Part shown: piece by piece, positions 34,833-48,810 of the stretch
How the letters are laid out: every line of letters starts with the position of its first letter
Numbering within the stretch: position 1 is the first letter of the stretch
Source of the DNA: Candidatus Cloacimonadales bacterium
GTDB taxonomy: Bacteria > Cloacimonadota > Cloacimonadia > Cloacimonadales > JAFGVF01
Assembly (NCBI GenBank): GCA_963663475.2
Contig: CAXXJV010000001.1
Location: forward strand, 1,504,001 to 1,568,000
Direction of reading: 5' to 3'
DNA length: 64,000 nucleotides
Position numbers and translations under genes: made by a program
Notes under the pieces: model-generated
What the model saw: only the letters and a program-made list of their open reading frames with translations
What the model was told of the DNA's origin: nothing
Databases searched by the model: none

Positions 34833-35098
34833 TAAAGTTCTACTAGACTACTTGTGTTTAACCCAAATAGTGCAGTAGACCTTTGTGAATAGCACTATAT
34901 TCTTCTGCAAAATTAACTTCCATAATTTCTCCGAATATATAAATTATATGCGTAAAAATTCTGTAAGCTATTTTGCTAGAATAATCTGCACTCTTCACTA
35001 AAGCTCTACAACACTACTTGTGTTTACCCCAAATAGTGCAGTAGAGCTTTAGAGAATATTCTGCTATTCTCAAAGAACTATTACATTATTAGGCTTTA
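34833..35098. repeat. Tandem family A repeats: partial right end, full copy 34858-35025 and short copy 35026-35098
   Basis: Direct sequence match to 27928-28097; the short copy keeps only the arms. Confidence 0.9.
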
Positions 35099-36810: not shown

Positions 36811-37290
36811 TTAACCAAAATAATACAGTAGACCTTTGCGAATAGCTCAATATTCTTCTGCAAAATTAAGATCTATAATTTCTCTGAATATATATTATAT
36901 GCGTCAAATTTCTGTAAGCTAATTTGCAAGAATAATCTGCACTCTTCACCGGTGATAGTTAGCTTTAGCCAAGTATTACTAAAGTTCTACTGCACTATCT
37001 GGCTTAAACCCAAATAGTGCAGTAGACCTTTGTGAATAGCACTATATTCTTCTGCAAAAGTAACTTCCATAATTTCTCCGAATATATAAATTATATGCGT
37101 CAAAATTCTGTAAGCTATTTTGCTAGAATAATCTGCACTCTTCACTAAAGCTCTACTACACTATCTGGGTTAAAAAATTGATAAAAATATTGACAGATAA
37201 TTTTGAATAAAGCATATAAATTCTAATAATGCAGTAGCTTTTGAGAATAGAAGAATATTCATCACTAAAATCCTACTGCACCATTAGGGA
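36811..37290. repeat. Cluster of family A repeats: 36811-37006 (with an insertion of about 30 bp), 37004-37173 (full) and 37223-37290 (short)
   Basis: Direct matches to 27928-28097; adjacent copies share a ttaaa junction. Confidence 0.9.
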
Positions 37291-37318: not shown

Positions 37319-37891
37319 ATGAAAAAGTTTTTGATTACATTCTATATAATCCTAATAAGTTCTTTATTGCCTGCAAAATCAGGTCTTACAACAGAATCTT
37401 ATATTTATCAGAACCAGAATAATAGATACAAGAAGTATGGCTTTATGCTTGCCTATGCACCTGTAAATGAGGCTTATTCAGCTAAAATATACGGCATTCC
37501 TGAAAATAACATGCTCTCGACTAATTTTTCTTATTTTTCCCTGTATCATGCCAGGAAAGGATCTTTTAAAGGTGGTGAATTTGATGATTCTCCTCTTGAT
37601 TTCTGGGTCAAGGAAGACAAGGATATCTATAGAAAATATATTGTTAATCTAGGTGTTACTCAAGGCTTAACTGCTCAAGGAGGCATATTTTTAGCTTATT
37701 ATGCTGGACTTGGTCTATCTGAGGAATTTCACCAATATAAATCTTCTTATGGAAATTATTGGTTTAAAAATGAAAATAAAATGATAGGGGATATTGGTAT
37801 AGAGTTAAATGGCAGATTGAGTTTAATCAACTTTGGTATAGGATTTTCATATCAATCCCTATATTATCTGTCAGCAGGATTGGAGTTTTAG
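37319..37891 (+). CDS. Putative small outer-membrane beta-barrel protein
   Basis: Signal peptide, alternating aromatic/Gly strands, terminal Phe (YLSAGLEF). Confidence 0.6.
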   Translation: MKKFLITFYIILISSLLPAKSGLTTESYIYQNQNNRYKKYGFMLAYAPVNEAYSAKIYGIPENNMLSTNFSYFSLYHARKGSFKGGEFDDSPLDFWVKEDKDIYRKYIVNLGVTQGLTAQGGIFLAYYAGLGLSEEFHQYKSSYGNYWFKNENKMIGDIGIELNGRLSLINFGIGFSYQSLYYLSAGLEF

Positions 37892-38077: not shown

Positions 38078-40150
38078 TTAGAAAGAGTACTCAACCATTA
38101 ACTTGGTCCAAAAGTTATTATGTAACTCATCAGTTCTTTCATTAATAGTATCTGCACCGTAGGAATAACCACCAGACAACTCAATATATTTGTTAAATTT
38201 AAAGAGAAGATTTGCATATAGCCCAATATGATCAGTGTAATTATACTCGTGTCCATTTGCATCAATATATTTACCAGAATAATTATTATAGCGAATACCT
38301 GTTGTTGATTTCAATATTTTCCCAATATTCATGGTAAGATCGCCATTTATATATTGGTATCCGTTATCAAATTCTTCTTTTTCTGATGAAGATAAATCTA
38401 AGTAGTTCATAGATGTCATTGAGAGGGATAGATCATACCTTTCCATAAATGTATATTGGGCATTTACTGTATTTTTGTAAAGCTTATAAGTCTCATTAAA
38501 ATTATAAATTAGGGATTTACCAAAGGCTGTTGAATAGGTAAAAGATAAATTACTATAATTACTCCAAGTAAGTGATTGTCTAAGGTCTGGTTCATTGAAT
38601 ATCTCGCCAATATACTCTTGTTGATTAAATCTAAGTCCTAAGTCATAGTTAAATCCATTCATAGTTGAAGCCGTTAGGTAGGATGTAGCAGATAAACTTC
38701 TCTTATCTCCATTTTCATGAAAGAAACTGTAATCAATCCAAGAATCAAGGCCAAGATATCTTAATTTTTTAGTATCAAAAATATATTCAAAACTGCTTGT
38801 TAATAGAGTGTAATTTGTTTCATCTATTCTCCCCATATCTGCTGTGAAATTCTTTGATGAAGAGTTACTTGCCAACATTATATTATATTTTGGAGCATAA
38901 TAGTTATATTCTAAGGAAAAATCAATCCCATTAATTGTTTCTGTATCATCTGCTTTATTAGTAGATAAATAAGAATCAATCATTAAGCTATTTTTATCAT
39001 TAAAATAGATTACAGGTTTTATCTGTAGCAAACTATTAGTATAGTCATCTTGAGGATTAAATCTATTTAAAGTTGTAAGCTGTAAACTCCAATTATCGCC
39101 CTTAGGCTTAACATTTGCTACAAAATATTGATCTCCAGTATTATATATTTTACCATTGTCGGTTAGCTTTTCATCTTTAGCATAGAGAAGACCATAGCTA
39201 ATGTTTTGAAGATTCCCTGTAAACTTGGTGGCTATTTCAGGTTGTTGAATATGCCTAGTATAAAACATATAATTAGGTATATCAAAGATAGCATAATCTT
39301 CAGTAAAAAAATATCTATTCTCACTTAAATAAGGAGCAAACTCCAAATTATAGACATCTTGTTCATAATCCAAAGGTACTTCTGAGTAGTCCGGATTAAC
39401 AGATGCTTTGAAATTTAAAGCAGAAGATGGATTATAAGCAAAATCTAATCCAGAATATTTAGCTCCATACTTACTATCCTGATCTAAGTTATTATGCATA
39501 TATGAAGTATATCCTCGACTTGTAATATTAAGCTTACTACGGACAATATCAGATAAAATAATATCAAATCCTTTATCGAAATAGTCATTGCTCATCTTAA
39601 TATCAGTATATGGCCCACTATAAAGATGGTACTTCTTGGTATAAGCTCTGGAAAATGCTAACTTCCACTTGTGAACCTCTAGGTTAGGGTAATTTAGGTC
39701 ATTAAAGGGAATAGTGAAATCAACAATCCACTCACTATCTGTGCAAAAAGTCTTATAAGAGTAATTACTATCCCAATCATTACTGATATTAAGATCAGAT
39801 TTTCTTACTCCATCTAATAAAGAACCATTTGGATAAGCATAATAGATATAACCAAATCTATCCTTTGGTGAAACAACAACTTGCACTCTTAAATAATCCG
39901 CTTTCTGATAAGTCTCATGATTAACTAAATTTCCAAAAATCATATCTTCATTCTTAGCCATCACAGCGTGAATGTAGAGATTCTCTTTGTCATAAGAAGC
40001 ACTAATGCTTATTGGTTCAATAAGTTCAAGCATATCATTAGGTTCATTTCTCATAAATTGACTTTGATCTGCTGTGAGGATGTTTTCTCCCCAAATTGAT
40101 GCACATAACAACCATAGTAAATTACCCAACAATATTTTAAAACTAGCCAT
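38078..40150 (-). CDS. Outer-membrane protein with an N-terminal CBM9/DOMON-like domain and a DUF5916-like barrel
   Basis: Signal peptide; YDKENLY, W.VDFTIPFNDL; NPDYSEV..D and ENRYFFTE...FYTRHI motifs; terminal VEYSF. Confidence 0.7.
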   Translation of the reverse strand: MASFKILLGNLLWLLCASIWGENILTADQSQFMRNEPNDMLELIEPISISASYDKENLYIHAVMAKNEDMIFGNLVNHETYQKADYLRVQVVVSPKDRFGYIYYAYPNGSLLDGVRKSDLNISNDWDSNYSYKTFCTDSEWIVDFTIPFNDLNYPNLEVHKWKLAFSRAYTKKYHLYSGPYTDIKMSNDYFDKGFDIILSDIVRSKLNITSRGYTSYMHNNLDQDSKYGAKYSGLDFAYNPSSALNFKASVNPDYSEVPLDYEQDVYNLEFAPYLSENRYFFTEDYAIFDIPNYMFYTRHIQQPEIATKFTGNLQNISYGLLYAKDEKLTDNGKIYNTGDQYFVANVKPKGDNWSLQLTTLNRFNPQDDYTNSLLQIKPVIYFNDKNSLMIDSYLSTNKADDTETINGIDFSLEYNYYAPKYNIMLASNSSSKNFTADMGRIDETNYTLLTSSFEYIFDTKKLRYLGLDSWIDYSFFHENGDKRSLSATSYLTASTMNGFNYDLGLRFNQQEYIGEIFNEPDLRQSLTWSNYSNLSFTYSTAFGKSLIYNFNETYKLYKNTVNAQYTFMERYDLSLSMTSMNYLDLSSSEKEEFDNGYQYINGDLTMNIGKILKSTTGIRYNNYSGKYIDANGHEYNYTDHIGLYANLLFKFNKYIELSGGYSYGADTINERTDELHNNFWTKLMVEYSF

Positions 40151-40179
40151 GCTACTACTCCTTTTAGCTACAATTTACA

Positions 40180-41856
40180 TTATCCTACTTTAATCTCTCT
40201 ATTTATGTATCCTGAAATTATGTCTTGATGAGAAGTTATTATAATTGTCTTGGACTTGAATAAATCAAAGAGAAGACTTAAAATATTATTAGCATTTTCA
40301 ATATCTAAGTTTGCTACCGGCTCATCAAGAAGAATAATTTCTGGATTACAGAGAAAAAGTCTAGCAATAGCGATTCTCTGTTTTTCACCTCCAGATAACT
40401 TTTCTCCATAATTTCCTCTCAAGGAGTATAGTTCTTCATTAGTATTCAAATATTCAAGCTTTACTTTTTCTAATACATTTATCACTTCTGAATCGGTTGC
40501 TTTGGGATTACCATATCTGATATTCTCTATTAGAGGTAGATCATACATATAACTCTCTTGAGTTAAATAACCGATTTTTTTTCTAAGCAACTGAGCTGGT
40601 ATTGATTTGATTTCATAGTTGTTAAGTAAAAGAGAACCTTGATAATTATCCTCTAATTTTGTAAGTAAATTTAGAAGGGTTGTTTTTCCAGAACCACTTG
40701 CTCCTACGAAGGCAACTTTATCTCCAATATTTATATCAAAGGATAGATTGTCGATTATATAGTTATTATGAGCTGTGTCATGTTTGAAAGAGATATTTTT
40801 AAACTGAATTATTGGATTTGAGAAACGTGTAAATATATTTCCTTCTACTATATCGACTATTTCTGCTTTGTTTTCACAATCAGTAATTACTTGAGTAATT
40901 TTTCTATAGGAGACAAATGAGCTTATGATGGAATTATAATATCTTGTGATATTCATAAAAGGAAGATAAAATCTACCTAAATATTGAATGAATACTATTA
41001 AACCTCCTACAGATAATTCATTATTCTTTACTAAATTTATTCCTACTACTATTATGATAACATTTATGATTATCCGGGCACCACTGGTAAAGGGAAAAAT
41101 TAATAGATGTAAATTAAGTCCCTTCTTACCAGTCTGAACATATTCTGTTATTAAATTATTGAATAAACTATCCTCTTCGTTTTCTTTAATAAATAACTTA
41201 AATAATTTATAATCTTTAAAACGACTTATAATCGTCGATTTTATTTTTGACATTTGCTCTCGTTCAAGGTTTGATAAGGCATATTGCTTCTTCCCAAAAA
41301 AGTAACCATTAAAAATAACTAACGGGACAGGTATTAACATTATCAAAGTTAGTGATTTAGATAAGTTAAAACAAACGAACGCCATTATAATGGCAGTAAT
41401 CAAATCAACAACAATTCCATTGATTGGACTTATTATAATATCTCTAATTGCTTCCACATCTGAAATAATCAAGGTAGATGCCTCTCCAGATGTCATTTCT
41501 TTTAAATACTTCGGCTTTACCCTAAGTAACTTAGAATATAATGTTTTCCTAACATCAGCTTTAACCTTGTACCCATATAAGGTAACTAAATAACCTCGTA
41601 TTAAGGATACTATGAAGACCCCTAAGGAAACAATTAAATAAGCAATAACCAAGAAGTTAACTATTGACAAACTACTAAGATTATGAAGAAAACTCAGACT
41701 ATTCTCAATGAGATAATTACTAGTGCGAGATTTTCCAGTTAAGTTATCAATCAATATGCCAAATACTTGCTGAGGCAAGACAGTAACAAAAGATTCTAAG
41801 AATACTAAAAATACTATTATAATAAATGTAGGACTTTTAAGATATTTTAATAACAT
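40180..41856 (-). CDS. ABC exporter (fused TMD-NBD, MsbA/MdlB-like), no C39 peptidase domain
   Basis: Walker A GASGSGKTT, signature LSGGEKQR, Walker B ILLDEP; N-terminal TM helices. Confidence 0.9.
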   Translation of the reverse strand: MLLKYLKSPTFIIIVFLVFLESFVTVLPQQVFGILIDNLTGKSRTSNYLIENSLSFLHNLSSLSIVNFLVIAYLIVSLGVFIVSLIRGYLVTLYGYKVKADVRKTLYSKLLRVKPKYLKEMTSGEASTLIISDVEAIRDIIISPINGIVVDLITAIIMAFVCFNLSKSLTLIMLIPVPLVIFNGYFFGKKQYALSNLEREQMSKIKSTIISRFKDYKLFKLFIKENEEDSLFNNLITEYVQTGKKGLNLHLLIFPFTSGARIIINVIIIVVGINLVKNNELSVGGLIVFIQYLGRFYLPFMNITRYYNSIISSFVSYRKITQVITDCENKAEIVDIVEGNIFTRFSNPIIQFKNISFKHDTAHNNYIIDNLSFDINIGDKVAFVGASGSGKTTLLNLLTKLEDNYQGSLLLNNYEIKSIPAQLLRKKIGYLTQESYMYDLPLIENIRYGNPKATDSEVINVLEKVKLEYLNTNEELYSLRGNYGEKLSGGEKQRIAIARLFLCNPEIILLDEPVANLDIENANNILSLLFDLFKSKTIIITSHQDIISGYINREIKVG

Positions 41857-41973
41857 GAATATTCCTTAAGACATAATAATTTATTAAATGAAATTTTAAA
41901 ACAGGGTTATCGTCAAGTATAATTTCTAATTGCTGTAAAAAATACAAACAATTTTAATTAAATATTATGAATC

Positions 41974-42099
41974 CTATTTTGGATCAACAGGTATTTCAGA
42001 ATAACATGAATCTCCATCATTTTTCCACGTTTTGCAACCAGCACCGATATTGATCATTTGATCAAGTTCTATAATCTCAGGCTTTTCATAAGTTTCCAT
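41974..42099 (-). CDS. Putative RiPP precursor peptide (41 aa), absent from the ORF track
   Basis: AAGGAG RBS with an A-rich spacer, then METYEKPEIIELDQMINIGAGCKTWKNDGDSCYSEIPVDPK*; starts 11 bp after the rSAM stop; YxKPxI leader motif. Confidence 0.85.
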   Translation of the reverse strand: METYEKPEIIELDQMINIGAGCKTWKNDGDSCYSEIPVDPK

Positions 42100-42110
42100 T
42101 TTTTTCTCCT

Positions 42111-43457
42111 TTATATATTATTTTGATAACCCTCTTTATCAAATTCTGCTCCATTACAAAGAATTGTATTTATATATTCATCCATCTGGCTTTCCTCAAC
42201 TCGAATTATCCAAGCTGGGCAAATAGCGCAATGATATTTTTTATCACAATTATGACATTTAAAAGCTTGTTTTTTAACATTTTTATTTTTTAGTAATAAG
42301 TTAATTTTTTCCCCAATATCCATCCATGCCTTTTCTATAGAAATATTACTATTAGTCATGCTTATAGAAGGAATCCTCAACTGAACACATGGACTAATAT
42401 TTAATTCTGAATCAATAAAACAGGATGTAATTCCACCACCGCAAATCCAATCAATTTCCTTAAGTTGGGGTGGAATTGAATTTAACATTTTTTTTGAAAA
42501 TACTAAATTCTTCTCTCTATCTAGCGGTTCACTTGGTACTAGTTCTTTGATCCGATGAATTTCTTCAGGCAGTAAGTTCATAGATATCAAGTTTAAATCA
42601 GTTGGATCATTTGGTGGGCATATATTTGAACCATAATTGAACGGAATATTTAAATTAGCACTGATATCATAAATTTTTTTTATTATCTCTTTTGTTTCAG
42701 AATGTAACTGGGTTCGTGTTTGAATAGGGATATTGTTTTGTTTGAAAAATTTTATTGAATTCATTATCCGATTGAATGCTTCAGGCATCTTGGTAAAATA
42801 TTCATAAGATATATTATCATAACCATACAAAGAGATAGCAATCATTGATGGCTTTTTATCTATAAAACATTCTTTTAACTCTTCAGTTAAATGATACCCA
42901 TTTGTATATACTGTTATTTTAAATCCTAAAGAATAGGCATGTGAATATATTTCGCAAAAATCAGGGTGTAATGTTGCTTCTCCTCCAGTAAACAATAAAC
43001 TATAGCATCCAATCTTGGAAAGCTCCGTAATAAGCTCTTTAGTCCTTTCAGTATTAATGAAAGAAGATTGTTTTTTGTCTACATAACAATGCTTACACTT
43101 AAAATTACAGATATTTGTTAACTCAATGGTTGCATTTAGAATGTTCCTTTCTAATCTATTTTGGATAGTAATTTCATCAAAGATGTTATAATTTTGTTTT
43201 GCTAGACCATCAAAATTACCTTTTTCAAAGTTATTCAATAATTTTACAAATTCATCATAATCATGAATTAACATACTCTTTTCTATATTAAATATGGACA
43301 TTAACTTGCTTATACAGTCTTTTTTACTCAACCCAAGAGAATGGACTTGGAACATAATTATACTTGTTTTATTCAATTTCATAACTTTTTCATAGTTTTT
43401 ATACACTAAAAATAACTCAACACCTATTTTTCATAATTTTAAATTTATGTATTGCAT
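42111..43457 (-). CDS. RRE(PqqD)-radical SAM-SPASM peptide maturase; in-frame TGA at codon 9 from ATG 43457 (the ORF track starts at GTG 43406)
   Basis: LNKT...GLS...L...F.......D...F..LL RRE pattern; ELTNICNFKCKHCY (CxxxCxxC); FTGGE, TNG, ISLYG; SPASM CGGG...ISPC...CHNC...HCAIC...C. Confidence 0.88.
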
Positions 43458-43518
43458 CAAAACTCCATTTTTTTTATTATGTTTCACTTATTTTCTTTTA
43501 GTTTATTAATGAGTTCTA

Positions 43519-43719
43519 TCAATTTTCTAAGTAATAGATTACACCATTAACCTCTATTAAAACAATATTTTCATTATTATCCTCATAAATAATGTGATAC
43601 TCCACATGCTCCAAATTAGATAAGATCATTTTATCAATTTGTACAAAATTAACTTGACTATAATTACATACAAAAAAAATAAATACACTAAGTAATAGAA
43701 AAAAAATAATCTTATTCAT
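43519..43719 (-). CDS. Small secreted or membrane-anchored protein (66 aa)
   Basis: GAGG RBS; hydrophobic N-terminus; acidic beta-rich C-terminus; first gene on the - strand of the island. Confidence 0.6.
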   Translation of the reverse strand: MNKIIFFLLLSVFIFFVCNYSQVNFVQIDKMILSNLEHVEYHIIYEDNNENIVLIEVNGVIYYLEN

Positions 43720-43813
43720 GAAGTTCCTCTGTAATAATAAATGAGGAAAATTAAAAAGTCCCGCAAAGATATGTTATACTACTGTATAATAATAAATTAT
43801 AAAGGTATAGATA

Positions 43814-44812
43814 ATGGAAAGATATTATGATAGGGTGTATACAACCGCTAAAAAAGTAGCCTTTTTATATATAAAAAATGCAGATGATGTTGAAGATATT
43901 ATTCAGTTGACTCTTATGCAATTTTATTTAAACAAAGATAAAATTACTGAAGAAAAAATTTATAACTGGGTATTTACAGTTACTAAAAACTTCTGTATGC
44001 AGTATTTTCGTTCAAGGAAAAAAGAAGATGAGTTAAAAAAATCTTATATAATTGAGGCAAGTAGTAATTTATCCCATGATGATAATCAGGATAAAAAAAA
44101 TGAAGAAAATTTAATCATAATAGATATTGATCAGTATGGATTTATTAATAACAAAGATAAAGTTATTTTAAAAGATTATATTGATAAACATAATAGTATT
44201 TCTAAGCTAAGTAAAAGCTATAAAGTGAAAAAAAAGACTCTACAGAATAAGATAAACCTTTTATTGAAAGAGATTAAACTCTATCATATTATTCAGTCGC
44301 AACCTCATGTATTTGATGCTTTGCCAGGCACTAAATTATCCAGAAATATTAATAATTTCCTTAAAACTATCACTAAGGCGATTGAGACAAATGAGATAGA
44401 TAAATTAAAACACTATCTCAGTGACTGTAAAATAAACGATAGTATTGATAATTTATATGTTAAGGAAGTTTCTTCATACAGAATTCAAATTGTAGCATCA
44501 AATATTTATATGTTAATCGTAGGTTTTATAGATTTGGATGACCATGTTAAATTTTTTATGGCTCGATTTAAATTAATAAATAACTATACTTTGAAATTTA
44601 TTGAATTTCCCATCTTTCCTAAGAGAGTTGTTGCTCTTGATAAAAAATATGCAGAGGGGAAAGAAGGGTTAAAAGGACTTTCTGATGATAGAGGTGCTAG
44701 TAATATGAAGTTTGGAACTCCAGACACTATACTAGACAAAAGAATGGGTAAAGTTGTTCAAACAGAAAATGAATTTAAACCCAAAAATAAGGCAGTAGAT
44801 CTTTGTGAATAG
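43814..44812 (+). CDS. ECF-type sigma-70 factor with a long C-terminal extension
   Basis: Region 2: AFLYIKNADDVEDIIQ...FY...NWVFTVTKNFCMQYFR; HTH-like SISKLSKSYKVKKKTLQNKI; about 170 extra residues. Confidence 0.75.
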   Translation: MERYYDRVYTTAKKVAFLYIKNADDVEDIIQLTLMQFYLNKDKITEEKIYNWVFTVTKNFCMQYFRSRKKEDELKKSYIIEASSNLSHDDNQDKKNEENLIIIDIDQYGFINNKDKVILKDYIDKHNSISKLSKSYKVKKKTLQNKINLLLKEIKLYHIIQSQPHVFDALPGTKLSRNINNFLKTITKAIETNEIDKLKHYLSDCKINDSIDNLYVKEVSSYRIQIVASNIYMLIVGFIDLDDHVKFFMARFKLINNYTLKFIEFPIFPKRVVALDKKYAEGKEGLKGLSDDRGASNMKFGTPDTILDKRMGKVVQTENEFKPKNKAVDLCE

Positions 44813-44947
44813 CAGAATATTCTTTTGCAATAGTAACTTACATAATTTTCATGAATTTATATATATTATATGGGTCAAAATTTTGTAAGCTATTTTGCCA
44901 GAATAATCTGCACTCTTCATCAAAGTTTACTGAACCATTTGGTTAAA
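44774..44947. repeat. Diverged full-length family A repeat overlapping the 3' end of the sigma gene
   Basis: gcagtagatctttgtgaatagc...gtaagctattttgccagaataatctgcactcttca...ggttaaa. Confidence 0.85.
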
Positions 44948-46007: not shown

Positions 46008-46602
46008 AATTAACTCCTTAATATATATTTTTCTAATTACCAAAAAATAGTAAGTAAATTTTATAGCAAGGAAATTTTTTGAGAAAGCTGAGAATTAGTA
46101 ATTAAGGGAACAAGATTAGTCATTATGAAGTTAATAAAAGTAACATATGACTTAGAAAGATAAAAGAACAAGTTGTAAATATACCCTGCAGTTTTTTTTA
46201 AAAATATTTTCAAAAAGTGGGACAAATTTGAAAAAGTGGACACTAGATATAAGTGAAGGGAAATTTCAATCGACAAATAGCAACCGACACCAAGAATGAC
46301 TGCTCAAATTAATCAATTGTTATTTAATACTTTAGATTTTAAAAGAGCTCAAATAGTGCACACTTATCATTAACTATCATATTAATTTCAACTTGACCCA
46401 AGAGAGCGCAATTTCTCGTATCCTGAAAGGTTTTAAAGAGGCTCAAGTTCAAGTCTGGTGGAAGAAAATAAGTAAATAATAAAATGTTTACGTAGTTTAT
46501 ATCCCTGAAAGGGATTAGTAATTTAGCCTGGGGTAAGCTACTCTCAGGAGCGTCACCCCAGGTCCAATATCCAAAACTAATACCAGAACCCTGTAAGGGT
46601 TT

Positions 46603-48265
46603 CAGGCTGTTGACAAACCTATTGTAATTAATAATATGATTTAATATAATACATAAAAAGTTGAATAATTAGCAATAAATATCTTGACATAATATACCCA
46701 TAATACTTTATTGTACAAGAGGTAAGATATGATTGAAAAAATAAATAGACAGACAGAAATTGAGATGGTAACCATCGAACAATTAGTAAAAGAAGACCAT
46801 CCTATAAGAAAAATTGACAAATATATAAATTTTGATTTTATATATGATAAAGTAAAACATTTGTATTGTTTGGATAACGGACGTCCAGGTATTGACCCTG
46901 TAAGATTCTTTAAAATGCTACTAATCGGATATTTATATGGGATTAAGTCAGAAAGAAAATTAGTTCTTGAAATAGAACATAGTACAGCCTTTAGGTGGTT
47001 TTTAGGTTATAAACTATTAGATAAGATACCTCACCATTCAGTTTTTAGCAAAAATCGACAAAGACGATTCAAGGATAGTTCAATATTTCAAGAAATTTTT
47101 GAAGATTTAGTCTTCATGGCACTGAAGTCTGATATGCTTGATGGCAAAGTATTATATACAGACTCTACACATACTAAAGCCAATGCAAATAACAAGAATT
47201 TCAGAAAAATAGAGGTTACCAAAACTCCCCAAGAATATGTTGGAGAATTAAATAAAGCAGTAAATGAAGATAGAGTAGCTCATGATAAGAAACCTTTCCC
47301 TGAAGCCGAGATTAAAGAAGAAACCAAGACAATAAAGCAAAGTACGACAGATCCAGATAGTGGAGAAATGAATCGTGAACGCAAGCCACGGGGTTTTTAT
47401 TATTTAGATCACAGAACAACAGATTCTCTCTTTAATATAATTACAGATGTTCATATAACTCCGGCTAATGTAAGTGATAGTACATGCTATATAGACAGGT
47501 TAAAATATCAGATTAACAGGTTTGGTTTTGATGTTGAAGCTGTGGGTTTAGATGCTGGTTATAATACAACATATATTTGTAAGGAACTATATGATTTAGG
47601 CATATTTGCAACAATGGGAAGAAGAAAAGCAGGAGGGAAAAAGCACTTTTTTAAGAAGAATAAGTTTAAATATGATAAAGATAAAGATATATGGATATGT
47701 CCTAATAATTGTATCTTAAAGTATTATACAACCACGAGAACAGGTTCAAAAGAGTATAAATCGTCAAAATCAGATTGTAAAAACTGTAAATATTTTGGGC
47801 AGTGTATAACTAATAAAAATGGAACTAAATCAATAAGAAATCATGTTTGGCAAAAATATAAAGATTGGGTTAAAGATAATACTAATAGTGAATATGGTAA
47901 GGAAATATATCGACGGCGAAAAGAAACTATAGAACGGAGTTTCGCTAATAGCAAAGAATTACACGGTTATCGATATGCTAAATTTAGGGGAATTGAGAAA
48001 ATGAAATTCCAAGCTTACATGACCGCTATAGCTCAAAATATCAAAAAAATGGCCAATATCCTCAGCAGACGTGGAGGTGGTGGAACCAATCCATTATCAA
48101 AATTTATTTTTTCACAAATGAAGTATTATATTTACATTCTGAAGTTCCAAATCAGTAAAATTAACATAAAAAAAGGCAAAACATAAATGACTCTTCAGAT
48201 TTATTTAAATTGCTAAAAACAGCGTAAATTTCTATTTAAAAAAGAGGGGGTTTGTCTACTACCTG
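46603..48265 (+). mobile_element. IS1182-family insertion sequence (1663 bp) with a 17-bp target duplication
   Basis: Imperfect TIRs caggctgttgacaaacc / ggtttgtctactacctg; direct repeat gaaccctgtaagggttt at 46586-46602 and 48266-48282. Confidence 0.9.
46729..48186 (+). CDS. IS1182-family DDE transposase
   Basis: GRPGIDP...LYGIKSER, DSTHTKANAN, STTDPD, DAGY, CP..C..C, YRRRKETIERSFA. Confidence 0.92.
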   Translation: MIEKINRQTEIEMVTIEQLVKEDHPIRKIDKYINFDFIYDKVKHLYCLDNGRPGIDPVRFFKMLLIGYLYGIKSERKLVLEIEHSTAFRWFLGYKLLDKIPHHSVFSKNRQRRFKDSSIFQEIFEDLVFMALKSDMLDGKVLYTDSTHTKANANNKNFRKIEVTKTPQEYVGELNKAVNEDRVAHDKKPFPEAEIKEETKTIKQSTTDPDSGEMNRERKPRGFYYLDHRTTDSLFNIITDVHITPANVSDSTCYIDRLKYQINRFGFDVEAVGLDAGYNTTYICKELYDLGIFATMGRRKAGGKKHFFKKNKFKYDKDKDIWICPNNCILKYYTTTRTGSKEYKSSKSDCKNCKYFGQCITNKNGTKSIRNHVWQKYKDWVKDNTNSEYGKEIYRRRKETIERSFANSKELHGYRYAKFRGIEKMKFQAYMTAIAQNIKKMANILSRRGGGGTNPLSKFIFSQMKYYIYILKFQISKINIKKGKT

Positions 48266-48810
48266 GAACCCTGTAAGGGTTTAATATAATGCCAACAAGG
48301 TAATATAATAAGTCTTTGATATACATGTGTTTTTATTAAACCCTTACAGGGTTACACTTTTTATATGCATCATAACCCAGGGTTGCGATACTTTCAGCAT
48401 CTTACCCTGGGCTAAACTATTTATCCCCTTTAGGGATATAAGACCTATCCCTTCAGGATTATGTCTTATTCAACTAAAAACTACTATCAACAGTACATTC
48501 TAATCCGTAAATTAGTGTAATACAATATCTAGTGCAAAATAATGCTAAATATTTTCCACCAGACTTGAACTTGAGCCTTTAAAAAGATAATCTCTCGAAA
48601 AAATATCAAAAAATGTCAAGAAAACATGAAATGTCCAATATTATCGACTTCTTTGAGGATAAGCTATTGGGGAGAGTGACTTGATGGTTGAACAGTCTCC
48701 AAGAAAAGCAGATAATCTTGAAATATATGTTGACAAATATAAAACAAAAAATATGGTGTATAATAACTAAAACAAAAAAAGAAGTTTTAACTAAATTAGG
48801 GGGATTGATT

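Follow-up and report, generated by a model that had tools for sequence, protein, structure and literature searches.

The window analyzed in this study is a 64,000-nucleotide stretch from a Candidatus Cloacimonadales bacterium (assembly GCA_963663475.2, contig CAXXJV010000001.1). It contains a block of six genes, five on the - strand and one divergent, that probably serves the production and export of a ribosomally synthesized peptide. The modifying enzyme would be a radical S-adenosylmethionine (radical-SAM)/SPASM protein bearing a recognition element (RRE) of the kind that binds the leaders of peptides that are made by the ribosome and modified post-translationally (RiPPs). The first gene of the putative operon encodes a small secreted or lipoprotein-like protein of 66 amino acids with a signal-peptide-like N-terminus (43519-43719, - strand). 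The radical-SAM/SPASM maturase gene follows, listed as an open reading frame (ORF) of 431 amino acids with a GTG start (42111-43406, -), while the full ancestral frame, including the predicted N-terminal RRE, begins at an ATG at 43457-43455 (42111-43457, -). Downstream lie the genes for a precursor peptide of 41 amino acids, whose leader contains YEKPEIIEL and whose core holds two invariant cysteines, C22 and C32 (41974-42099, -), and for an ATP-binding cassette (ABC) exporter half-transporter of 558 amino acids, which consists of a transmembrane domain (TMD) and a nucleotide-binding domain without a C39 peptidase domain (40180-41856, -). The last gene of the operon encodes an outer-membrane (OM) protein of 690 amino acids with a signal peptide, an N-terminal β-sandwich and a large β-barrel (38078-40150, -). 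A divergent intergenic region (43720-43813), the presumed site of both promoters and conserved in the relative G002 and in the metagenome contig L090, separates these genes from that of a 332-amino-acid extracytoplasmic function (ECF)-like sigma factor (43814-44812, +), in which regions 2 and 4 appear to lie within residues 1-155 and a C-terminal extension of about 175 amino acids follows. An earlier, sequence-only reading of the window had listed the same six genes, and all of its ORFs were found at the positions it gave.

The window's own genome (G000) is 99% complete and was compared with relatives that include G002, G004 and G006, G002 and G004 being congeners and G006 a sister species. 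Nearly the entire block recurs in G002 as a single blastn high-scoring segment pair with 92.94% identity over 6728 nt (window 38079-44788). We refer to this common stretch, which has different flanks in G002, as the island (38079-44788). All island reading frames are retained in G002; the 66-aa gene shows a single-base homopolymer frameshift there and in G006, its C-terminal frame being kept and evolving like coding sequence. The dN/dS values between G000 and G002 range from 0.11 to 0.22 for the OM, ABC, peptide and maturase genes.

The precursor ORF starts 11 nt past the maturase stop codon, and the intervening nucleotides (AGGAGAAAAAA) contain the ribosome-binding site AGGAG, as the sequence-only reading had pointed out. 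Its description of this ORF as hidden did not hold, because the ORF is among the gene calls of public pipelines. In G002, the ORF is found at the corresponding position behind its ribosome-binding site, and the encoded peptide is 85% identical. The 15 nucleotide differences between the two genes comprise 8 synonymous and 7 non-synonymous changes, corresponding to a dN/dS of 0.16, which falls within the range of the neighboring genes; the binomial estimate for this number of synonymous changes is ~0.013. Residues 1-16 are identical across the three known variants. Invariant positions further include C22, the segment K26-E35 (KNDGDSCYSE, with C32) and the C-terminal DPK, while W25 is replaced by Cys in the natural variant P0046 and by Phe in the genome G119, and K23 by Arg in G002. 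The peptide matched no Pfam or NCBIfam family, and a word-based search returned its own 98% cluster only. A six-frame search of 232 genomes of the phylum yielded one further homologue (E 2.3e-5, 46% identity), a 45-aa ORF behind AGGAG in G119, which belongs to another family. Both peptides have the core pattern C-K-x-aromatic-K-[ND]-D-x-D-S-C-Y-S-E, and the G119 peptide gene is directly followed by that of an ABC protein 44% identical to the window ABC protein over its full length. Thus, a short ORF is co-conserved in the two genomes covered by this comparison, next to the maturase gene in G002 and next to the ABC orthologue in G119.

The maturase gene is present in a single copy in its own genome, and an orthologue was detected in 1 of 61 relatives (G002, 86% identity; dN/dS 0.22). 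The cysteines of the CX3CX2C motif (C100, C104, C107) are invariant, and seven C-terminal cysteines, including a CX2CX5CX2C stretch, are conserved across 48 relatives. Radical_SAM (PF04055) was the sole Pfam match, with 67.3 bits against a cut-off of 29.5. The SPASM model PF13186 did not match the window or the G002 protein even at E ≤ 10; it is passed by the full-length relative P0062 (22.6 bits), and the threshold of the PqqD model PF05402 by the nearest full-length relatives P0061 (30.8 bits) and P0062 (38 bits) over residues 22-85. Of the domains named in the sequence-only reading, the radical-SAM core was therefore recovered by Pfam in the window protein itself, and the PqqD and SPASM parts by motif, fold and the Pfam matches of the relatives.

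In an NCBIfam scan, the window maturase matched 58 families, and none of the best 25 models came near its cut-off, the highest-scoring one being AhbD (103 bits versus 500). The SkfB family TIGR04403 (51.5 versus 300), PqqE TIGR02109 (54.3 versus 381) and AlbA NF012164 (46.1 versus 850) were not reached. PapB NF047865 was not among the best 25 of the 58 matches, and P0061 and P0062 score 52.9 and 46.5 bits against its cut-off of 340. None of ten maturase relatives scanned reached the cut-off of a curated family. By these comparisons, the maturase appears to stand outside every curated maturase family tested, and since the peptide matches no family either, the earlier statement that the system is not a named RiPP class was borne out. 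The family also seems to be rare. A word-based search found full-length relatives in a 98% cluster, an 86% cluster and P0003 at 40% identity, and an exhaustive search of 1.84 billion representatives added only P0061 (34%) and P0062 (35%). The latter search gave 56 maturase representatives at E ≤ 1e-30, most of them ~350 aa long without the N-terminal domain. Scanning genome contigs revealed nothing above 31% identity, and scanning metagenomes revealed only the near-identical contig L090.

We modeled the intact maturase of G002 (447 aa) with AlphaFold2 (AF2), which gave a mean predicted local distance difference test score (pLDDT) of 91.4 and a predicted template modeling score of 0.91. The N-terminus of the model consists of strands 7-12, 15-20 and 25-29 and helices 31-40, 46-57 and 61-79, which is the topology of an RRE, at a pLDDT of ~90. 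In a VIA-align comparison, the best match was SuiB (Z 23.8, root-mean-square deviation (rmsd) 5.5, 358 residues aligned, model residues 2-436), followed by SkfB (Z 23.7 over model residues 5-421) and the SuiA-bound form of SuiB (Z 23.6). These top alignments extend across the N-terminal domain, starting from residues 1-5. Foldseek ranked SuiB, SkfB and CteB as the top three, with a TM score of 0.59-0.60 for SuiB, and a profile of the family searched against the PDB retrieved SkfB (E 8.3e-40), then PqqE, CteB and SuiB. The N-terminal RRE fold proposed from the sequence alone is thus backed by the predicted β3-α3 arrangement at pLDDT 91, by its alignment with SuiB and SkfB and by the PqqD matches of the relatives. 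The intact maturase accordingly models as an RRE, a radical-SAM core and a seven-cysteine SPASM domain.

Among the known systems, the streptide maturase SuiB/StrB (PDB 5V1Q/5V1S/5V1T) gave the best full-length structural match, which covers the RRE (Z 23.8 and 23.6), and shares both the architecture and the predicted docking of the leader on strand β3. The sequence identity to the window maturase is only 13-15%, and the Lys and Trp that are cross-linked in streptide have no invariant counterparts in the window peptide and its homologues (W25 to Cys/Phe, K23 to Arg). The island further differs from streptide systems in its diderm host, the lack of a streptococcal-type quorum-sensing regulator and the presence of an OM barrel gene. 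SkfB, which forms a Cys-to-Met thioether (PDB 6EFN; TIGR04403), is the closest solved protein by profile (E 8.3e-40) and ties for the best fold match, and its substrate is likewise a short Cys-containing peptide. SkfB has a twitch-like single auxiliary cluster, unlike the window enzyme, which has the seven-cysteine SPASM pattern and scores 51.5 bits against the TIGR04403 cut-off of 300. CteB (PDB 5WGG), which is among the top fold matches, AlbA, PapB (NF047865) and the SCIFF maturases (TIGR03974) combine RRE, radical-SAM and SPASM domains with an adjacent Cys-bearing precursor and ABC exporter, as in the island. Unlike these sactipeptide and ranthipeptide maturases, the window enzyme falls into a separate clade of ~350-aa proteins, most of which lack an RRE, and the precursor is encoded downstream of the enzyme.

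The intact maturase and the peptide, each supplied as an alignment, were also modeled as a complex in three runs along with three controls. The three runs scored 0.65, 0.66 and 0.61, while the best of the controls scored 0.01. Of 80 solved complexes, 58 attained this mark, as did 2 of 110 mismatched pairs. At least 66% of the contacts are shared between the runs, with a pLDDT of 51 for the partner. Leader residues 4-11 were placed on RRE residues 25-33 and 64-74 (strand β3 and helix α3), and core residues 17-23 and 32 near maturase residues 340-342, 358-360 and 414-416. The modeled complex supports, as a prediction, binding of the leader to the RRE.

The ABC protein matched PF00664 and PF00005. 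Its best NCBIfam matches were models of type I secretion, CydD and MsbA, each well short of its cut-off, and no C39 peptidase domain (PF03412) was detected in this protein, which starts with the TMD. The 690-aa OM protein had no Pfam match at E ≤ 0.1, PF19313 included, and no NCBIfam match. Its close homologues are unnamed Cloacimonadales proteins, and remote ones (E 2.5e-15 to 1.7e-4) carry PF19313 (DUF5916) and PF06452 (CBM9-like), so that the description as DUF5916-like in the sequence-only reading applies to the remote homologues, while the protein has no match of its own. The layout of an N-terminal β-sandwich and a C-terminal barrel is the same as in these DUF5916/CBM9-like proteins, although the Pfam model of DUF5916 is not matched at E ≤ 0.1. 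The AF2 model (pLDDT 78.7) comprises a signal helix, a sandwich at residues 47-197 and a barrel at residues ~209-689. MtrB (6r2q_B) was the best fold match (Z 17.6, rmsd 5.0, 415 residues aligned), followed by ushers, LptD and TonB-dependent receptors, and Foldseek returned only weak generic matches to the barrel with TM scores of 0.3-0.4. The DUF5916-like OM family has no described function, and no mention of DUF5916 was found in the literature searched.

Members of the OM family are present in 155 of 232 genomes of the phylum, with one member in the window's own genome. At 20 sampled loci, a radical-SAM gene, an ABC gene and the barrel gene occurred together in two; a further five, including that of G005, had same-strand ABC genes at most 3 kb upstream, with no radical-SAM gene detected. 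Since most of the sampled loci showed no such neighbors with the queries used, the barrel family is broader than these systems, yet it recurs as their terminal gene. The nearest published architecture is that of Bacteroidales radical-SAM RiPP clusters (PMC10352776), which encode peptidase-containing ABC transporters, membrane-fusion proteins, TolC-type OM proteins and precursors with GG-motif leaders. Both are RiPP loci of diderm bacteria that encode their own OM component together with an ABC exporter, and the island differs in having no C39 domain and no membrane-fusion protein and in its large DUF5916-like β-barrel as OM protein.

A different set of genes occupies the same position in G006. 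This genome is syntenic with the window for a MATE gene, a 190-aa ORF, the OM protein (96% identical), the 66-aa gene, the sigma factor (98%) and an ornithine carbamoyltransferase (OTCase) gene. The middle of the locus consists of a 39-aa three-cysteine ORF behind GGAGG, a 419-aa radical-SAM/SPASM enzyme, and an ABC-2 ATPase with two permeases. One breakpoint between the window and G006 falls within the 5' end of the OM gene, the other immediately downstream of the 66-aa gene. The G006 maturase belongs to a different clade, with the geopeptide, CefB and PapB models as best NCBIfam matches, all under the cut-off. Homologues of this type (E ≤ 1e-30) were present in 5 of 232 genomes, and each of the five is followed, 2.55-2.78 kb downstream and on the same strand, by an OM-family gene. 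The precursors of G006, G031 (two tandem copies) and G112 have the motif C-x-x-R-T-x-R-C-P in common. A third type was found in G227, where a 51-aa two-cysteine ORF is accompanied by genes for a SPASM-only protein, a radical-SAM/SPASM enzyme, a protein of 216 aa, an ABC protein and, last, the barrel. From the gene content and breakpoints, maturase, precursor and ABC transporter appear to be exchanged as a cassette, while sigma factor, small protein and barrel form the conserved frame around it, and three unrelated cassette types in the phylum end in the DUF5916-like barrel family. The cassette exchange within a fixed frame and the coupling of three cassettes to one kind of barrel, both of which go beyond the sequence-only reading, are in our view the most interesting points of the analysis.

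Several related loci were encountered in the course of these comparisons. G005 has a barrel gene (76% identical) with a second-type ABC-2 transporter and no maturase, precursor or sigma gene nearby (L187, G005:C10, 8975-13600), which looks like a remnant or a stand-alone pair of ABC-2 transporter and barrel. Just upstream of the G119 peptide/ABC pair is a gene resembling phage-type lysozymes (L222, G119:C43, 2181-2780), which is also found upstream of the second-type precursor gene in G112 (L208, G112:C3, 837-1091), and it may be a shared neighbor or mark a preferred insertion context. The window's own genome contains a second radical-SAM/SPASM gene (G000:C1:891605-892597), 27.5% identical to the G006-type maturase, which may encode an anaerobic sulfatase maturase or be part of another peptide system.

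The maturase ORF as listed in the window is truncated. Upstream and in frame are a GGAG, the ATG at 43457-43455, eight codons and a TGA at codon 9 (43431-43433, -), which is AGA in G002 and in L090, the latter being 100% identical over residues 1-213. Contigs of runs X1 and X5 carry the stop allele and those of runs X6 and X12 the intact allele; X1 may be the window's own source, while X5 comes from another study. Public gene calls hold both a 431-aa and a 448-aa form of the protein. As both alleles occur in public runs and both protein forms in public calls, the stop is a natural polymorphism and not an assembly slip. Recoding of TGA was considered and rejected, because the neighboring 66-aa gene terminates at TGA and the codon is thus a genuine stop here. 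Restarting translation at the GTG at 43406 would give a protein beginning at model residue 19, which lacks strand β1 and most of β2 of the RRE. The product in this genome may therefore be unmodified, or be made by an enzyme with a crippled RRE.

We consider it probable that the island directs the production and export of a ribosomal peptide modified by the RRE-bearing radical-SAM/SPASM enzyme. Transcription of the operon, from the small secreted protein through maturase, precursor and ABC exporter to the OM barrel, would be driven by the divergent ECF-like sigma factor. In the modeled complex, leader residues 4-11 (YEKPEIIE) would pair as an extra strand with strand β3 and helix α3 of the RRE, and this docking would place the two-cysteine core beside the SPASM auxiliary clusters. 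The enzyme would then add intramolecular cross-links, for which Cys-derived thioethers of the sactipeptide or ranthipeptide kind are the leading guess; a Lys-Trp link is disfavored, since W25 and K23 vary. A homodimer of the ABC half-transporter would move the product through the inner membrane, and the DUF5916-like barrel, as the conserved gene order suggests, would carry it across the OM or handle it there. The observations of the sequence-only reading are confirmed and its interpretation as a peptide-modification and export locus is supported. Two of the outcomes that it had named as refuting, homologous loci without a conserved short ORF and an N-terminus without an RRE fold, were examined, and neither overturned it. 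By contrast, the claim that the locus is self-contained is doubtful given the missing leader protease and the early maturase stop.

Several results weigh against this reading. Neither the PqqD nor the SPASM Pfam model matched the window maturase at E ≤ 0.1 or the intact G002 copy at E ≤ 10, and the complex model may have passed because the pair resembles solved SuiB-SuiA-type complexes. As noted before on the basis of the sequence, no protease is encoded in the island, so that a leader protease is missing from it, and Peptidase_C39 had no match in the whole 99%-complete genome, while control genomes gave matches. No membrane-fusion protein is encoded in the island either. With the queries used, 13 of the 20 sampled OM-family loci had no ABC or radical-SAM neighbor, and we infer the role of the barrel from gene order alone. 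The early TGA of the window's maturase recurs in a run of a second study (X5), so the enzyme may be dispensable. Finally, a homologous maturase is missing from G119, itself 99% complete, where the best match (E 1.2e-6) is a generic radical-SAM one, and the OM family has no match there either; since this genome keeps peptide and ABC protein, modification may not be obligatory for this peptide family. Taken together, the nonsense allele, the missing leader protease and the G119 pair leave real room for a working peptide that is unmodified.

In the strongest of the alternatives, which we regard as unlikely, the functional core would consist of the peptide and the ABC protein only; the product, for instance a bacteriocin or signal, would be secreted unmodified or with a disulfide bridge, and the maturase would be a late and dispensable addition undergoing decay here. 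This would account for the gene content of G119 and for the codon-9 stop in the contigs of two studies, and the two invariant cysteines could form a disulfide. However, the maturase is under purifying selection (dN/dS 0.22 between G000 and G002), and intact alleles occur in G002, L090 and runs X6 and X12. Moreover, the leader stretch YEKPEIIEL, placed on the RRE in the complex model, shows full conservation alongside that domain and has diverged in the enzyme-less G119, as expected of a leader recognized by the enzyme. The coexistence of intact and nonsense alleles, together with one genome that has peptide and exporter only, allows the necessity of the modification to be asked.

The sigma factor and the 66-aa protein bear on two further alternatives. 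Region 2 of the sigma factor was matched by PF04542 (29.6 bits versus a cut-off of 24), whereas TIGR02937 (33.4 versus 42.9) and TIGR02985, a 162-position model that aligns over residues 3-155 of the protein (41.5 versus 126), remained below their cut-offs. The protein had no region-4 Pfam match, and a Protein Atlas search with the C-terminal extension of ~175 aa gave no usable match. The window's own genome encodes about ten full-length paralogues of 320-340 aa that are 28-39% identical and conserve the C-terminal extension, at approximately G000:C1 1026195, 2550140, 280273, 1269331, 568887, 2612945, 1066070, 2603726 and 1572618. Most of the paralogues, at least five besides the island copy, are divergently paired with a signal-peptide protein of 63-83 aa homologous to the 66-aa ORF (E 1.7e-12 to 8e-5), and members of this small-protein family always occur with a sigma paralogue. 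The genes that come after these pairs encode large secreted proteins, of which some have tails resembling the sorting domains of the type IX secretion system, rather than peptide-modification enzymes. In an alignment of the intergenic regions of the paralogues, four share some blocks, which the island copy does not clearly share. Since the pair of sigma factor and small protein also occurs beside unrelated secreted-protein genes, it is not specific to RiPPs, and calling the sigma factor dedicated to the cluster, as had been done from the sequence, was overstated; the pair in the island is one copy of a paralogous module. It is a reusable regulatory module, plausibly controlling the adjacent operon, and may be one that has not been described.

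Barrel and sigma factor could instead form a sensing or uptake device akin to cell-surface signaling, with the barrel taking up or detecting the mature peptide and signaling back to the sigma factor instead of acting as an export duct. The barrel has a pore of the size of TonB receptors and an extra N-terminal domain, the sigma factor carries its ~175-aa extension without an anti-sigma gene nearby, and G000, G002 and G006 all have the sigma gene alongside. We consider this improbable, because in the second-type loci of G031 and G112 the barrel gene directly follows the ABC genes with no sigma gene in the stretches read, the single OM-family gene of the window's own genome stands against about ten sigma paralogues, so that the sigma module also occurs without a barrel, and no TonB box or plug domain was identified. 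Least probable of all is an enzyme acting on the 66-aa protein, the OM protein or a cofactor, with the short ORF as unrelated exporter cargo: the best NCBIfam matches (among the best 25 of 58) are heme or cofactor enzymes (AhbD, NirJ2), the 'rSAM with lipoprotein' model TIGR04133 aligns over residues 75-393 and the 66-aa gene directly precedes the maturase gene, but these matches are all 5- to 10-fold under their cut-offs, the 66-aa protein belongs to the sigma module found beside unrelated genes and the other cassette type, and the enzyme bears an RRE, a domain that binds peptide leaders, on which the 41-aa leader is docked in the model with clean controls.

Beyond the modification and export of the peptide itself, it is conceivable, though rather doubtful, that the ~700-aa DUF5916-like barrels are the dedicated OM partner of Cloacimonadota radical-SAM peptide systems. 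An ABC transporter and a barrel would then constitute an export route without a membrane-fusion protein or TolC, into which at least three unrelated cassettes have been plugged, with whole cassettes swapped among species of the genus at the OTCase locus in a fixed frame of sigma factor, small protein and barrel. If this is true, the cassette swapping would resemble the module exchange of bacteriocins or polymorphic toxins, and the coexisting nonsense and intact maturase alleles could reflect producer and cheater variants. We know of no cultured producers in the Cloacimonadota, and no paper on radical-SAM RiPPs in this phylum was found in the literature searched. The island thus represents a concrete RiPP candidate from a phylum without cultured producers and suggests a first function for the DUF5916-like OM family, and the natural exchange of a cassette at one locus in sister species helps to define the interchangeable parts of RiPP export in diderm bacteria.

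The island is an accessory, horizontally mobile element, as judged from its other location in G002, an empty site in G004, its low GC content and the direct repeats that bracket it in G002. There, its neighbors are a dipeptidase gene and, at the opposite end, an AbiEii/AbiEi pair, and it is bracketed by a direct repeat of 152 nt (L009 3580-3731 and 10718-10869; 97% identical), which is att-like and duplicates the 3' end of the AbiEii-like gene. No integrase was seen within the island. At the G004 site, the island is missing, and the 190-aa ORF adjoins the OTCase gene together with one copy of the repeat. The GC content of 0.283, compared with 0.330 for the genome, agrees with the earlier visual impression of a block richer in AT than its surroundings, and equally low values occur in just 0.73% of the 6.7-kb windows of the genome. 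A recent transfer was not concluded from identity, because the flanking core genes range from 66 to 93% identity between G000 and G002 and the 93% of the island is therefore not decisive. Near-identical island DNA was present in 20 run rows from 12 studies, including wastewater, manure, landfill, compost and feces metagenomes, and the source of the window itself may be among them.

The flanking 'family A' repeats described in the sequence-only reading are real, with copies at 34858-35003, 36811-36954, 37005-37150 and 44778-44925, the last of which abuts the right border of the island and contains the repeat families D1 and D2. The repeat is ~150-170 nt long and partly palindromic, and it looks like a miniature inverted-repeat transposable element (MITE) or a repetitive extragenic palindromic element of the genus. 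Since many copies per genome occur in all five congeners searched, the flanking repeats are not specific to the island, and their interpretation as island ends was rejected. Scans of the sequence for sigma-70 promoter consensus sites (51 versus 48.3 expected) and terminators (2 versus 2.0 expected) remained at the level of shuffled sequences.

Two neighboring features lie outside the island. The 190-aa ORF mentioned above (37319-37891, +), conserved beside the insertion site in G006 and G004, encodes a signal-peptide protein with an aromatic final residue; it matched no family and resembles a small OM protein. A 485-aa DDE-type transposase is encoded at 46729-48186 (+), and its end sequences (46436-46603 and 48258-48590) recur at more than 30 places in G004, suggesting an active insertion sequence family with many solo ends or derived MITEs.

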